64,000 nt of DNA from an uncultured Candidatus Saccharibacteria bacterium (GCA_964350885.1 CAYGKV010000001.1:4073-68072), one strand, 5' to 3'. Shown: positions 52,663 to 62,374, numbered from the stretch's first letter. The notes: generated by a model from the letters alone, not told the origin. A program made the numbers and translations.

Positions 52663-52772
52663 TTGACAATTATTCGTTTTCCCCGATGATTGTGGGGAAT
52701 GTAAGTTTTCCATACAAAAGCGTGGAAAGGTTGGTTTACATTATTTTAGAGGAAACACATACACAAAGAATC

Positions 52773-53114
52773 ATGGCTAAGAAGCTATACGTCGGCGGGC
52801 TGCCCTACAGCACGACCGATACAGAGCTCAAAGACGCTTTCGCGCAGTGCGGAGCCGTCGAGTCTGCTGTTATCATCATGGACAAGATGAGCGGCCGCTC
52901 GAAAGGTTTCGGTTTCGTGGAGATGTCATCTGATGAGGATGCACAGAAGGCGATTGAGATGTGGAACGGGAAAGATTTTGGTGGACGCTCGCTCACGGTA
53001 AATGAAGCGCGCCCAATGGAAGATCGCCCGCGACGCGATTTTCGTAGCGGCGGTGGCAGTAGCGACCGTGGCGGTTACGGAGGAGGCGGAGCACGAGGAG
53101 GAAAGAGCTGGTAA
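52773..53114 (+). CDS. RRM-domain glycine-rich RNA-binding protein
   Basis: RNP2 KLYVGGL and RNP1 KGFGFVEM motifs, C-terminal RGG/GGYGGGG tail. Confidence 0.85.
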   Translation: MAKKLYVGGLPYSTTDTELKDAFAQCGAVESAVIIMDKMSGRSKGFGFVEMSSDEDAQKAIEMWNGKDFGGRSLTVNEARPMEDRPRRDFRSGGGSSDRGGYGGGGARGGKSW

Positions 53115-53135: not shown

Positions 53136-53160
53136 AAAAGCCCCTTCGGGGGCTTTTTGA
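53136..53160 (+). terminator. rho-independent terminator aaaagcccc-ttcg-ggggcttttt
   Basis: read directly, 22 nt after RRM gene stop; preceded by second hairpin gaaagagct-ggta-agctctttc. Confidence 0.65.
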
Positions 53161-53285
53161 TTTCCGTCGCCACATATCCACACGTGGTGAATGGAGAGTC
53201 GTCGGTCTCGTTCATAATGATGTACTACAACGTTATGCGATCTCAATTTGCGCACGAACCTGCACCGAGGAATCCTCGAGGGTCT

Positions 53286-54437
53286 ATGAGAGCGCTCGCC
53301 ATTCACCGATTTCTCCTGCGTCTTGCGTTTGCGGCAGTGCACGTGTTTGCGTGGGTATTTGTATTTCAGTATTTTTACTCTCTTGAATTGAGCGTTGCGA
53401 CTGCGCTCATACATACGGCGCTTTTCTACACGCTCTCGCAGGCAATTGCATGTCTTGTCACTCCGATTGCAGCGCGCTTCTTGCGCGGAGGAGTGCGGCG
53501 GCTCATGTTTTTGGGGGTATTGTTTGCGGCCGCCGCCTTCGTCGTACTCGGAGCTGCTCTTGAGGGATTCTGGCCTCTTGAGTATATGGGTGCTGCCATC
53601 GCCGCGTTTGCCGTCTGCATGGGCTTTTACCGAGCGCTGTATTGGATTCCATACGAAGTGGAAATATCGGGAGAAACGAGAAAACGCCCTTCCGTTTTTT
53701 GGGAGATATTGATCGCCGTCTCGCCGCTTGTGGCGGGCCTCTTGATAGCGAGCGCAGGAGAAATATCGGGATGGGTTCTCTATAGTGGTGCGGGGATTGT
53801 ACTCCTCTCCTTGGTACCGATTCTCTCGGTGCGCGACATACATGAGCGATTCTCCTGGGGGTACCGCGAGACATTCACAAAGCTCTTTACTATCGAACAT
53901 CGACACATCGCGACGAGCTCGTTTTTGGAAGGAGTGTCGGGCGCTGCGCTACTCTTTTTTTGGCCCCTTGCGGTGTTTCTCATCGTCGAATCTTCGTACG
54001 GAATGCTCGGCATCATTCTCGCGTTTACTTTTCTGATGGCGATCCTTACACGTGGTGCCGTGCGGAAGGCTCTGCGTCGCCTCGGCCTCGCTAGGTCAAG
54101 GACTCTCGACGTGGTGTTCGCTGCTAGTCCATGGTTGTTTCGAATTGTTGTGGGGACTCCCTTTGCGATCATGCTCGTCGATTCGTATTTTTATACGACT
54201 ACGCCACGCCGCCTCGGTGTCGATCCACTAGTATTTGAACAAGCAGCAGATGGTGGTTCGTATGTAGACGAATACACGGCGCTCAAAGAAATCGCACTTG
54301 CGCTCGGGAGAACGGTCATCAGTATCTTGGGTGTGACGACCGCGCTCTTCATGCCAATCCCGGCCGTATTTATCTCGATTTTCGTTGCAGCCGGCCTGTG
54401 TACCGTCGCGGGTGTTCTGTGGTTGCGCTCAAATTAA
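53286..54437 (+). CDS. polytopic membrane protein, MFS-like
   Basis: ~10-12 TM helices, loop ARFLRGGVRRLMFLG reminiscent of MFS motif A; start uncertain (ORF opens at 53157). Confidence 0.4.
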   Translation: MRALAIHRFLLRLAFAAVHVFAWVFVFQYFYSLELSVATALIHTALFYTLSQAIACLVTPIAARFLRGGVRRLMFLGVLFAAAAFVVLGAALEGFWPLEYMGAAIAAFAVCMGFYRALYWIPYEVEISGETRKRPSVFWEILIAVSPLVAGLLIASAGEISGWVLYSGAGIVLLSLVPILSVRDIHERFSWGYRETFTKLFTIEHRHIATSSFLEGVSGAALLFFWPLAVFLIVESSYGMLGIILAFTFLMAILTRGAVRKALRRLGLARSRTLDVVFAASPWLFRIVVGTPFAIMLVDSYFYTTTPRRLGVDPLVFEQAADGGSYVDEYTALKEIALALGRTVISILGVTTALFMPIPAVFISIFVAAGLCTVAGVLWLRSN

Positions 54438-54483
54438 AAAAGAGAGCGGGACGAATGTCCCGCTCCAGATTTTCTTCATATCG

Positions 54484-54870
54484 TCAGATCAGTCGGAGGT
54501 ACCCATCTTGATCCAACACGGGATTTCGAGGCGGCTTTTGACCAGCTGATTTCCGTAAAGCCTTTTGGAAACCCTTCCGACGACGGAAGATCTCCATCAT
54601 GGCGTCACGATAGGCCATTCCGAGTTCCCTCGTCGCTTTGTTGACATCGGGAACAAACTCGCGAACGACTGTGCCCGTCAGCAGCGCAAGTTCACATTTC
54701 GGAGTGCGCCGTTTTGCAATCTCGATCGAGATGGCGCGAAGGAGAAACCAATCCACCCACAACGTTTTCTTCGGCGGCATGAGATGGGCATATGCGGGAT
54801 GATCTCTCAGAAAGCCGAGGCCTGCCGCCAGTTCGGTGTTTCCAGCAGGCTGGTAAAACTCTCTTTTCAT
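54484..54870 (-). CDS. hypothetical basic protein (128 aa), downstream partner of cryptic pair
   Basis: ORF with ATG overlapping upstream stop by 1 nt (TAATG); no motif recognised. Confidence 0.4.
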   Translation of the reverse strand: MKREFYQPAGNTELAAGLGFLRDHPAYAHLMPPKKTLWVDWFLLRAISIEIAKRRTPKCELALLTGTVVREFVPDVNKATRELGMAYRDAMMEIFRRRKGFQKALRKSAGQKPPRNPVLDQDGYLRLI

Positions 54871-55214
54871 TAGATGACCCTCCTCTTTCCTCGTTTGTCA
54901 GCAGAAGCACGCACAGGATGTTCGCGATTGTTCAGGATTTTGACGAGAAGCCGCCAATATGCTCTGAATACTTTCTGCCGCCTTTTCCGTTCCCCCTGTG
55001 TTCCGATATAAAGTTCGGAAATAGTGTAGCGGACCGCACCGCACTTACCCACGCGGGGGAGTTTGTTAAGAGTGAGGTTAAATGCCCTCAGTGCGAGGTC
55101 AGGCTTGATGTACTGCCTGTCCTCTTTTGAAAGCGAGTCAAGAGCAGTGCCGACCTCGCCATCTTGGATGTGTATGTGCAACATGACTGCCTCCTCTCGG
55201 CGTCTGGGTTCCAA
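54870..55214 (-). CDS. hypothetical basic protein (~105-114 aa), upstream partner of cryptic pair
   Basis: ORF; Lys/Arg-rich C-terminus (KRRQKVFRAYWRLL…KRGKRR), possible nucleic-acid binding. Confidence 0.4.
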   Translation of the reverse strand: MEPRRREEAVMLHIHIQDGEVGTALDSLSKEDRQYIKPDLALRAFNLTLNKLPRVGKCGAVRYTISELYIGTQGERKRRQKVFRAYWRLLVKILNNREHPVRASADKRGKRRVI

Positions 55215-55258
55215 CTCTTTACTTCTACGACTATTCCACGAAATTCAATGTTGCGCAA

Positions 55259-55711
55259 TTAATGCAATAGTTGGGCGACGACCTGCTTTACATCGTTTCC
55301 ATCAGCGCCGCCGGCGAATTCTTTCATTACGGCACCGGTCAGTTTGCCTGCGCCTGATGCGTCAGTCACTCCCAGTTCAGCCATTTTTGCGCGCGCGACC
55401 TTCTCGATCTCTTCGCGGCTTGCCGTTTGGGGTAAATACGTCTCTATAATTTTGAGTTCGTTGGATTCTTTCTCAGCGAGCTCCGGTCTGCCGCCTGCTG
55501 CGAATTGCTCTGCAGAATCTTTCCGCTGCTTGGCGAGCCGCTTCAATACAGATACAGCATCGGCATCAGACATTTCTTCTGTCGGTTTGCGGCCTTTGGC
55601 GACCAGTTCGTTGGTAAAAGCAGAAAGCGCTCCGCGCAACGTATCGCGCTTTAGATCGTCCTTCGCCTTCATAGCCGCGACCATATCTGTCCGAATTTGT
55701 TGGGTCAACAT
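55259..55711 (-). CDS. GatB/YqeY domain protein
   Basis: 150 aa, LKRDTLRGALSAF…LAKQRKDSAEQF typical YqeY. Confidence 0.75.
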   Translation of the reverse strand: MLTQQIRTDMVAAMKAKDDLKRDTLRGALSAFTNELVAKGRKPTEEMSDADAVSVLKRLAKQRKDSAEQFAAGGRPELAEKESNELKIIETYLPQTASREEIEKVARAKMAELGVTDASGAGKLTGAVMKEFAGGADGNDVKQVVAQLLH

Positions 55712-55752
55712 GTTTTAAGTATACCAAGAGCGCCCCATGATACAATCGCCCC

Positions 55753-56829
55753 ATGGAATGGGTCGTCGTCGTTCTTCTGGTCGCAATACTCGGACTCCTC
55801 GTATTTCTTTTTTGGCGTCGGCCGGATACCAAACAAGATGTGCAGAGCCTCATGCTCTTGCAAAATCAGATGCAAGAGCTTTCTCGTGCGATGGAAGCCA
55901 AGCTCGGGGAGGGAACGACCCGGATGTTTGAGAGCATGAAAACCCAATTTGGCGAGTCGCAGCGGCTTGCTTCAGACATTCGTGATCTAGTAGCAAAGCA
56001 GCTCACAGAAGTGCGCGTGGAGCAGACGAAAACCAATGAATCCACGACACGCTTTATGGTGATTGCCGAACAATTGGCCAATCTTGAAAAAGTGCTCAAA
56101 CACCAAAAGCAGCGTGGCAACCTCGGTGAAGCTTCGCTCGAGCTTATCCTCTCCAACATTCTGCCGCCCGGATCATACGAGATGCAGCATCAATTTCCTG
56201 GTGGAGAGACGGTGGATGCCGTCATTATTACGAAAGAGGGCGTGATACCGATCGATGCGAAATTTTCGCTCGACAACTATCAGCGGCTTGTGAGCGCGAT
56301 TGATGACACCCAGCGTGCTGAATTGGAAAAACAATTCAAAAATGACCTCAAGCTGCGGATCGACGAGACTTCCAAATATGTGCGCCCCAAAGACGGTACG
56401 CTACCGTTTGCCTTTATGTACATCCCCGCAGAGGCTATCTACTACGACCTCCTCATCAACGAGGTGGGCTCGGTCAAGGTAAATACGCGCAATCTCATTG
56501 ATTATGCCTACAACGAAAAAAGAGTCATCATCGTTTCTCCGACCACGTTTGCGGCGTACCTCCAATCAGTCCTATACGGTTTCAAGGCGTTCAAAATAGA
56601 GGAAACAGCGAAAGATATAGCCAAGAATGTCGAGGCGCTTGGCCGACACCTCAATGCGTATCAGGAGTACTACAAAAAACTCGGCGCGTCACTCTCCACT
56701 ACGGTCAATCATTTCAACGCGGGTTCCAAGGAACTCGGCAAAATCGACAAAGATGTACTCCGTATCACGGGCGAGTCGGCAGCGCTCGATGCGCCGCTTT
56801 TGGAGCGGCCGGTTGCAGCCGACGAGTAA
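55753..56829 (+). CDS. rmuC: DNA recombination protein RmuC
   Basis: N-terminal TM helix, long coiled coil, C-terminal RmuC nuclease-like domain (FAFMYIPAEAIYYDL). Confidence 0.8.
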   Translation: MEWVVVVLLVAILGLLVFLFWRRPDTKQDVQSLMLLQNQMQELSRAMEAKLGEGTTRMFESMKTQFGESQRLASDIRDLVAKQLTEVRVEQTKTNESTTRFMVIAEQLANLEKVLKHQKQRGNLGEASLELILSNILPPGSYEMQHQFPGGETVDAVIITKEGVIPIDAKFSLDNYQRLVSAIDDTQRAELEKQFKNDLKLRIDETSKYVRPKDGTLPFAFMYIPAEAIYYDLLINEVGSVKVNTRNLIDYAYNEKRVIIVSPTTFAAYLQSVLYGFKAFKIEETAKDIAKNVEALGRHLNAYQEYYKKLGASLSTTVNHFNAGSKELGKIDKDVLRITGESAALDAPLLERPVAADE

Positions 56830-60955: not shown

Positions 60956-62374
60956 TTGTCGGTGATTCATGAGTTTGAACAAAAAGGAATCGTCACCTCA
61001 GAGGGTTTTCGTTTGGCAATATCGTCCCTGCTCAGTTTTGATTTGCACGGTGTTGTCGACGGTTATCTCGGGAGTTACTGGGGCATTTCTCGGTGCCTTA
61101 CACTGAGCATCTTTTTTTTCGGTTTACTGATGATTTTGTCGACACAAATACCAAACCTCTTCATTTTTGCGTCGGGATGGCTCTTTGGTACGGCACCGGT
61201 CTGGATTCCTGTGATTACTCTTATGTCTGCGTGGTATGTGTGGTTGTGGTACGTGCGAAGTGCATATATCGCGAAGCAAGTACCCATTCTTCTCGAAGTG
61301 AAGATGCCTCGAGAGATCAATCGATCCCCGCGCGCAATGGAAAATGCACTCTCCAAGCTGTGGACGGATTCTGGCGAGACGACATTTTACAATCGATCAT
61401 GGCAAGGCCAATGCCGTCCCTACTTTTCACTTGAGATGGCGTCTTTTGGCGGTGAAGTTCACTTTTATATTTGGTGTTGGAAAAATTGGCGGCCGACGGT
61501 CGAATCTATGATGTACGCATACTATCCAGAGGTTGAACTCGTAGAGACAGAAGATTATGCGTCGAAATTTAAATATGATCCTGAGAAGTACGATTCCTTT
61601 CCTACCGATTGGCGTTACGAACCGCGCAACGATGCCTATCCCATTCGAACGTATGTCGAATTTGAACTCGATAAGGATCCGAAAGACGAGTACCGAGTAG
61701 ATCCTCTTGCACAGGTTTTGGAGAGATTGAGCACACTAAAGCCGAGCGAACAAATGTGGGTCCAGATTATCATCACGATGAGTCGGGATACGCGTCGAGT
61801 AAAAGACGGCGCGTGGTGGCAAACGGAACCTCGATTCGAGTCGTTGATAAAAGAAGAGGTTGAGAAACTCCGTAAGGAAACATCCTCCCAATCAGACTCT
61901 CCCGATGAACGATGGAAAGCGTACGCTCGTGTTCCTCTATTCCGGTATACGGAATTGGTCAAAGCCATGGATCGCAATATGGGTAAACACCCGTTCAACG
62001 TCGGCATGCGCGGCATTTATGTTGCAGAATCCAAAGACTTCAATGCGCCGAGCTATACAGGGTTGCGATGGATATGGAGACCCTTCGGCAATCCCCAGTA
62101 CATGAATCAAATGCGCCCGCGCCGATGGGGGAATCCATTCGATTGGCCGTGGCAAGATTACAAAGACGTGCGATGGAATCTCATGATCAGGCGCGCGCTT
62201 GATGCATATCGCAGACGCTCGCATTTTTATTCGCCTTGGATCTTTCCGCACAACATGATGTCGACCGAAGTGATAGCAACTATGTGGCATCCACCGAGCG
62301 CCTCTGTCGCAGCTCCTGGTCTTGAGCGCATCGCAGCCAAGAAAGCAGAGCCACCACCAAATTTACCTAAATAG
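60956..62374 (+). CDS. membrane-anchored hypothetical protein with Trp/Tyr/Arg-rich extracytoplasmic domain
   Basis: two N-terminal TM helices (LSIFFFGLLMIL…, VWIPVITLMSAWYVWLWYV) then ~380 aa soluble domain with many W (WRPFGNPQY, WGNPFDWPWQDY); GTG start, contains in-frame T8 run at 61112-61119. Confidence 0.45.
   Translation: MSVIHEFEQKGIVTSEGFRLAISSLLSFDLHGVVDGYLGSYWGISRCLTLSIFFFGLLMILSTQIPNLFIFASGWLFGTAPVWIPVITLMSAWYVWLWYVRSAYIAKQVPILLEVKMPREINRSPRAMENALSKLWTDSGETTFYNRSWQGQCRPYFSLEMASFGGEVHFYIWCWKNWRPTVESMMYAYYPEVELVETEDYASKFKYDPEKYDSFPTDWRYEPRNDAYPIRTYVEFELDKDPKDEYRVDPLAQVLERLSTLKPSEQMWVQIIITMSRDTRRVKDGAWWQTEPRFESLIKEEVEKLRKETSSQSDSPDERWKAYARVPLFRYTELVKAMDRNMGKHPFNVGMRGIYVAESKDFNAPSYTGLRWIWRPFGNPQYMNQMRPRRWGNPFDWPWQDYKDVRWNLMIRRALDAYRRRSHFYSPWIFPHNMMSTEVIATMWHPPSASVAAPGLERIAAKKAEPPPNLPK

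Follow-up and report, generated by a model that had tools for sequence, protein, structure and literature searches.

What two small, overlapping genes of no recognisable family do in a bacterial chromosome, and whether they are genes at all, is the question raised by a stretch of 64,000 nucleotides from an uncultured Candidatus Saccharibacteria bacterium (GCA_964350885.1, CAYGKV010000001.1:4073-68072; hereafter the window). The two open reading frames (ORFs), here called A and B, lie on the minus strand at 54484-55214 between yqeY and a membrane-protein gene, and an original prediction made from the DNA had taken them for a candidate novel toxin-antitoxin (TA) or regulatory module. Genomes of Patescibacteria (the candidate phyla radiation, CPR) are small and rich in unannotated genes, and they lack most known regulators. 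Our analysis turns the two anonymous ORFs into a defined module, namely two paralogous proteins of predicted four-helix fold with natural fusions, a conserved terminal peptide on one of them, and a variable two-slot islet beside yqeY.

A and B are genuine genes beyond chance ORFs, because B has homologues at 34-64% identity and A at 27-54%, and because the pair architecture recurs in other genomes (contigs or loci with relatives of the pair are numbered L001-L022, and P0002, P0018 and P0022 denote relative proteins). Gene B, the recurrent component of the cassette, spans 54484-54870 on the minus strand and encodes 128 residues (isoelectric point (pI) 10.2), and gene A, on the same strand at 54870-55184, encodes 104 residues from its ATG (pI 10.6). 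An alternative TTG start would extend A to 54870-55214 and 114 residues, but the ATG is preferred because a Shine-Dalgarno sequence (GAGGAGG, 55190-55196, minus strand) lies 5 nucleotides ahead of it and because the gene callers use the 104-residue start on five identical contigs. The stop codon of A (TAA, 54872-54870) and the start codon of B (ATG, 54870-54868) have one base in common (TAATG), and a second GAGGAGG (54879-54885, minus strand) lies 8 nucleotides ahead of the ATG of B within the last codons of A; the translational coupling of two overlapping minus-strand ORFs, as originally proposed, is borne out by this arrangement. An equivalent GGAGG is found ahead of the A slot in L003 and L011, and GGAGG occurs inside the upstream gene, ahead of B, in L003, L004, L017 and L019. 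A Lys/Arg-rich C-terminus of A had also been pointed out as suggestive of nucleic-acid binding; its basic character indeed recurs in homologues, but its sequence is not conserved, and the AGG AGG of the ribosome-binding site of B serves as the codons for the C-terminal Arg-Arg of A. That the two ORFs are spurious or decaying and have no function is hardly credible: their orphan status and the very small number of homologues would suit such an explanation, but the amino-acid sequences are conserved among homologues at 34-64% identity and keep invariant residues in the core, the ribosome-binding sites, the overlap and the terminators recur in related loci, the structures are predicted with confidence, and five other, independent assemblies carry the identical DNA base for base.

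The family is new at the level of both sequence and fold, with no detectable relative in annotated families or solved structures. Neither A nor B matched an entry in Pfam, NCBIfam, PHROGs or PADLOC (PADLOC-DB 2.0: none at E ≤ 1), and alignment profiles of A, B and an alternative partner family, S (described below), found no relative among PDB sequences; the best E-values across the curated-family and PDB searches were above 0.005 and spread over unrelated families. A Pfam scan of all 35 members of the B family returned scattered sub-threshold noise and nothing consistent, and comparison of the predicted models with solved structures gave no match in fold. The absence of a recognisable or housekeeping family, on which the original prediction had insisted, thus holds throughout Pfam, NCBIfam, PHROGs, PADLOC and the PDB profiles. 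Homologues were found at the protein level, nonetheless: a 5.8-billion-protein index yielded 12 homologues of B at 49-64% identity, and only 25 relatives of B were found when a profile was run exhaustively against 1.84 billion cluster representatives. The B family has about 35 members, all on Saccharibacteria/Paceibacterota-like contigs, and about 10 relatives of A were found once a profile was used. The named hosts are uncultured Candidatus Saccharibacteria metagenome-assembled genomes and one Paceibacterota metagenome-assembled genome, and a metagenome scan added no further loci.

Residues 10-108 of B (54547-54843, minus strand) are predicted to form a four-helix bundle, with helices at residues 11-23, 34-54, 61-72 and 78-108 in an AlphaFold2 model built on the B alignment (predicted local distance difference test (pLDDT) 80, predicted template modelling score (pTM) 0.72). 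The conserved core of the family reads VDWFLLRAI..RRTP..LLTGTVVREFVPD..LG.AYRD..F.RRK; helix 2 is its best-conserved part, and D40, W41, F42 and L43 are invariant among close homologues. This helix is the hydrophobic LWVDWFLL... segment that had been singled out in B as a notable feature, and it loses that standing as helix 2 of a confidently predicted soluble bundle. The segment was also considered as a membrane span and rejected, being a charged, amphipathic core helix with pLDDT above 90.

A and B are distant paralogues with the same predicted four-helix topology. A first hint came from MAFFT, which placed the A proteins onto B spontaneously. In a profile comparison by hhalign, with the fusions described below trimmed, A and B aligned over 86 columns (A 7-98, B 10-109) with a probability of 85%, an E-value of 6e-6 and a score of 36.7; 60 column-shuffled controls scored 10.2 ± 1.8 (maximum 16.4), and reversed profiles scored 10-13. 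Furthermore, an ORF of the A2 subtype (the A of the window being of subtype A1) matched the B hidden Markov model directly (E 3e-4). This match and a score far above those of the shuffled and reversed controls establish the paralogy. A has equivalents of R54/R55, R70 and Y87 of B, and pI values of 9.5-11.4 are found throughout the B and S proteins and in most A proteins. The suggestion that the upstream protein is an antitoxin-like DNA binder accordingly gives way to that of a tail-less B paralogue with a pI of 10.6.

A functional link between A and B is argued for by natural fusions, in which both are part of a single polypeptide: three independent relatives, P0002 (220 residues), P0018 (209 residues) and P0022 (218 residues), have this form, and their mutual identity is only about 40%, for which an assembly artefact does not account. 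In the model of P0002 (pLDDT 86.9), the N-terminal half, corresponding to A, reaches a pLDDT of at least 94, and the order of the helices is the same in both halves.

Behind its bundle, B carries a tail that A does not have. Residues 109-128 (54487-54546, minus strand; PRNP...GYLRLI in the window) comprise a disordered, Lys/Arg-rich linker and a C-terminal peptide ending in …PVLDQDGYLRLI, with residues 111-128 at a pLDDT below 50. The family consensus of the tail is [ST]EHP, followed by 4-9 residues and then by G-Q-φ-R-L-[ILV]-COOH, with a linker of variable length; among the 35 B members, the G is found in 24, the Q in 28, φ (L/Y/F/I) in 25, the R and the L in 31 each, and the final I/L/V in 28. 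The canonical motif for binding to the β sliding clamp is Qφx[L/M][F/L], examples of clamp-binding sequences being QLVLGL in Pol IV and QLGLF in Pol II (PMC11139829). With Ile tolerated, this motif fits 22 of the 35 B members within their last 7 residues, and distant members terminate in QLRLF(S), QRRMF(S) or QFTF. Like the clamp binders, B would thus carry its motif at the very end of a disordered tail, the Gln, the Leu and a final aliphatic residue or Phe falling where the motif places them, but its folded domain is not homologous to any known clamp partner, and clamp binding of B is suggested by the motif. Clamp-binding polymerases were also sought in the window for comparison of their motifs, and none is encoded there.

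Conservation of the pair in other genomes, on which the original prediction had made its case depend, is seen wherever the DNA ahead of B could be read (L002, L003, L004/L005, L006-L010, L011, L013, L014, L017, L018, L019, L020 and one further contig): every such B homologue is preceded by a small ORF that overlaps the start of B by 1 or 4 nucleotides, or is fused to it. L001 begins too near B for a called partner, but the last part of an S-type ORF is present there. The gene order is usually DnaB-RecR-L21-RmuC-yqeY-[pair]-membrane protein-…-DUF5667-ECF sigma-RRM protein, L004 being an exception, in which the pair is found in a different, non-syntenic neighbourhood. In the window, yqeY lies upstream of the pair (55259-55711, minus strand; Pfam YqeY, E 1e-39), the membrane-protein gene on the plus strand (53157/53286-54437) converges on B, and the remainder is ordinary chromosome with UvrABC, aminoacyl-tRNA synthetases, enolase, carbamoyl-phosphate synthase and others. 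In L011, L002, L003, L013 and L019, YqeY is 89, 79, 68, 76 and 53% identical to that of the window, and B is 63, 62, 57, 47 and 34% identical; the identity of B thus tracks that of YqeY, indicating vertical inheritance of B with faster evolution than that of its neighbours. Vertical inheritance is also in line with the G+C content of the cassette (0.52-0.53), which equals that of the flanks, with the single copy in the window, and with the lack of a phage or plasmid copy. The description of the pair as isolated therefore does not stand, given a syntenic chromosomal place beside yqeY, YqeY identities of 53-89% and the G+C of the flanks. Horizontal acquisition was considered and rejected, as there is no G+C anomaly. 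A phage-derived regulator pair, likewise part of the original prediction, found no support: no copy of the pair was detected in phage and plasmid collections (tblastn) or in IMG/VR (pattern scan).

What occupies the two slots varies. The upstream slot holds A1 in the window, L003 and L020, and A2 as a free protein in L021/L022 and in fused form in L011, L018 and P0018. In five loci, an S gene is found upstream of B in place of A (L013:3783-3992, L002:4783-5004, L019:625-834, L004:3803-4036 and L014:59-205). The S proteins have 69-77 residues and are basic (pI about 11; 11.2) with the consensus MANxxALAxSA…DAIxKAIRGxGIT…RLMRxVG…FARDK, and no Pfam or PDB relative was found for them. We considered S as a truncated A or B, for which the hhalign score was at noise level, and as ribosomal protein S21, for which there was no match in Pfam or PDB, and rejected both. 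In L017, the upstream slot holds a 114-residue protein with a weak helix-turn-helix (HTH) match (L017:266-610, ahead of B), and a 243-residue HTH-like protein is located ahead of S-B in L004 (L004:3049-3780). Both have an HTH-like N-terminus (HTH_28, E 7e-4, below the cut-off; among the partners of B, only that of L017 has this weak match) and a C-terminal Cys-x-Cys-x-Cys-x2-His with a weak match to WRC; a resemblance of these two proteins to GcrA-type regulators was unconfirmed, and BLASTP showed no similarity between them. The downstream slot holds B or, in L021 and L022, an unrelated protein of 128 residues, X (L021:310-696 and L022:660-1046), whose gene overlaps the A2-type gene by 1 nucleotide. 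X was examined as a frameshifted B and rejected: no B-like sequence is found in any frame, and between L022 and L011 the DNA of yqeY (70%), A2 (69%) and the membrane gene (74%) aligns but the X/B segment does not. Finally, L011 is the genome closest to the window (YqeY, 89%), yet its A is only 27-29% identical to that of the window. The cassette is thus an accessory, fast-changing islet between conserved flanks.

Several signals suggest that the pair is transcribed on its own. A promoter-like element for the pair (TTGCGC, 17 nucleotides, TG-n-AATAGT; 55230-55258, minus strand) was read from the sequence over the stop codon of yqeY, although a consensus promoter scan did not list it; GTGGAATAGT occurs in the spacer ahead of the pair both in the window and in its L003 orthologue, and a near-consensus TTGACA-17-TATAAT takes the same spacer position in S-type loci. 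Downstream of B, a predicted intrinsic terminator (54433-54466, minus strand) consists of a 10-bp stem with 7 G-C pairs, a 4-nucleotide loop and a T-run (hairpin and T-run, 54466-54443), and it appears to read bidirectionally and hence to serve the convergent membrane-protein gene as well. A hairpin with a T-rich stretch also follows B in L002, L003, L013, L017 and L019; the hairpin after the fused gene of L011 has a weaker T-run, and no terminator hairpin is evident after B in L004, making six of the seven related loci inspected. From the promoter-like elements and terminators, we infer that the pair is its own transcription unit, and A and B accordingly make up an autonomous operon of two translationally coupled genes, carried on a Saccharibacteria-like (Patescibacteria/CPR) chromosome.

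As for function, we tentatively favour, at somewhat less than even weight, a lineage-specific accessory two-protein complex that is tethered to a hub protein by the tail of B. A would bind B to give a pseudo-dimeric helical complex, whose conserved Arg/Tyr surface might engage either a polyanionic ligand, namely nucleic acid, or a client protein, and the flexible tail of B would tether this complex to the hub, with the tail-less partner modulating or masking B. The best sequence match of the tail points to the hydrophobic cleft of the β sliding clamp, DnaN, as the hub, an assignment that we nevertheless consider doubtful; alternatively, the hub could be a ClpX-type N-domain, as for SspB-like adaptors. 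The segment by which SspB docks, LRVVK, resembles the L-R-L-I of B. SspB reaches the ClpX N-domain through a short stretch at the C-terminal end of a disordered tail that extends from its folded domain (PMC9963277), and B would share this design of domain, linker and terminal segment by analogy. The likeness concerns architecture alone, and B differs in being a helical bundle with no match to the SspB family model in Pfam/NCBIfam and with no known ssrA-type cargo. Docking of B might be regulatory or inhibitory (toxin-like) in either case. Should the tail dock on the sliding clamp or on a protease hub, the module would offer a handle on the control of replication or proteolysis in CPR bacteria, and docking would add a case of a paralogue modulating its sibling; if the tail does not dock, the proteins are one more lineage-specific family without an assigned function.

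Several observations weigh against a tethered complex of this kind. The hub was guessed from a motif of 5-6 residues; B of the window reads GYLRLI, with Tyr in place of the motif Gln; and Arg is nearly invariant at a position that is free in clamp motifs, which the clamp model does not predict. The alignments are shallow (10-35 sequences), and the P0002 fusion model, with a pTM of only 0.57, gives no confident A-B interface or placement of A relative to B. The model of B, furthermore, contains a low-confidence β-bridge between the tail and an N-terminal YP motif, and the tail could therefore fold back or drive oligomerisation. Also, slots that are swapped and a cassette that evolves fast are no less compatible with a conflict module than with a regulator.

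The β-bridge would suit another explanation, in which A and B form a lineage-specific nucleic-acid-binding (nucleoid- or RNA-associated) heterodimer without any hub, the basic bundles coating or bridging DNA or RNA and the C-terminal peptide self-associating or folding back. A pI of about 10-11 for both proteins, Arg/Tyr positions common to the two (R55, R70, Y87 and R98 in B; K41, the R in VRYT and Y/W in A), and nearby genes for replication, recombination and RNA proteins (DnaB, RecR, RmuC and the RRM protein) are in line with this idea. An abundant chromatin or RNA protein, however, is not expected to be replaced, or to lose its partner, between close relatives, and the strictly C-terminal, sequence-specific peptide behind a variable linker would be left unexplained; we regard the hub-less heterodimer as unlikely.

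The exchange of slot occupants would, by contrast, suit a TA or abortive-infection-type conflict module. B would then be a growth-inhibiting effector, for example with a tail that blocks the sliding clamp, the upstream A, S or HTH-like protein would neutralise it, and the fusions would be self-inhibited single chains. Such a module would be consistent with two small, coupled genes that have a promoter and a terminator of their own, with the free combination of occupants in the two slots among close relatives at a locus with flanks of 70-89% identity, with the divergence of A between the two closest genomes (27-29%, against 89% for YqeY), with the one non-syntenic copy (L004), and with the weak HTH match of one partner (L017). 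There is also precedent in toxins that target the clamp, SocB of SocAB and RipA of a Rosmer system, both of which act on DnaN (PMC12795458). As small proteins of two-gene modules, SocB and RipA would unite the TA idea with the tail motif of B, but B sits in a syntenic locus with vertical inheritance, and the partner of B is its paralogue; no relation of B to the clamp-targeting toxins emerged via PADLOC or Pfam, SocB and RipA not having been directly compared. With classical type II TA systems, the pair likewise shares the overlap between its small genes, a promoter and a terminator of its own, and partner exchange, and it differs from them in the lack of a known toxin or antitoxin domain, in two strongly basic products, in natural fusions, and in a fixed position free of mobile elements.

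Antitoxins are typically acidic or labile and are less conserved than the toxin. Here, the would-be antitoxins are as basic as the would-be toxin (pI 10.6-11.4), A is paralogous to B, and S is 60-68% identical in genomes in which B is 34-47% identical, the reverse of the usual pattern. In addition, neither a toxin or antitoxin family or fold nor a PADLOC match was found, the chromosomal position of the single copy is fixed over deep divergence, the G+C is native, and phage, plasmid and IMG/VR sequences hold no copy. A conflict module is accordingly possible but, in our view, rather improbable. As an identity for the pair, TA is thus not supported, with no toxin fold, no PADLOC match and no phage or plasmid copy; of the broader proposal of a TA or regulatory module, the TA half gained no positive evidence, but slot exchange and evolution faster than that of the flanks do favour something of the conflict type. 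A more specific idea would make B the first of a family of clamp-docking effectors confined to CPR bacteria, with an activity on replication that is gated by A, its paralogue without a tail, or by small partners that can replace one another. We consider it quite improbable; if true, the pair would constitute a new TA-like or replication-control module of ultra-small epibiotic bacteria, evolving at a fixed islet of the chromosome through the exchange of cassettes. Both the gene layout and the domain-linker-peptide design have precedents; the novelty at the family level is real, but that at the system level is unproven.

The spacers ahead of the pair in other loci deserve mention in their own right. 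Near-consensus sigma-70 promoters (TTGACA-17-TATAAT or with an extended -10) are found in L002:4691-4794, L013:3679-3785 and L019:443-627. In L002 and L013, the promoter is followed by a conserved 5' leader of about 45 nucleotides (GTATAGTTGC.TTTGT.GCGT…GTATCCCC), possibly with a role as an operator or as a regulatory RNA; in L019, hairpins directly follow yqeY. An Rfam scan of 52.5-57.5 kb of the window detected no RNA element. The start codons of yqeY and the divergent rmuC are about 40-70 nucleotides apart (55684-55753), the start of yqeY itself being ambiguous: 150 residues from 55711, or 141 residues from 55684 as called on the identical contigs. The sole consensus match of the promoter scan, at 55708-55680, overlaps this start.

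Of the neighbouring genes, the membrane protein at 53157-54437 on the plus strand (53286-54437 and 383 residues according to the gene callers) is multi-pass and has no match in Pfam or NCBIfam, and it is located beside the cassette in all syntenic relatives at 39-72% identity. A plus-strand ORF of 472 residues at 60956-62374 has no Pfam match at E ≤ 1e-5, and the identical contig L006 has an equivalent gene of 470 residues without Pfam domains near dnaB. The plus strand at 52686-53114 encodes an RNA-binding protein of the RRM_1 type, whose C-terminal tail is rich in Gly and Arg (…GGGSSDRGGYGGGGARGG…); this protein is kept in the same neighbourhood in relatives, beside the extracytoplasmic function (ECF) sigma factor and the DUF5667 protein. 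Further away, the region 5510-51350 encodes aspartokinase-homoserine dehydrogenase, aspartate-semialdehyde dehydrogenase, carbamoyl-phosphate synthase, glucose-6-phosphate dehydrogenase (G6PD), an AcrB/HlyD efflux pump and a P-type ATPase; the metabolism of the window is thus richer than is usual for Saccharibacteria, though Candidatus Saccharibacteria is the label given to the closest relatives of the locus.
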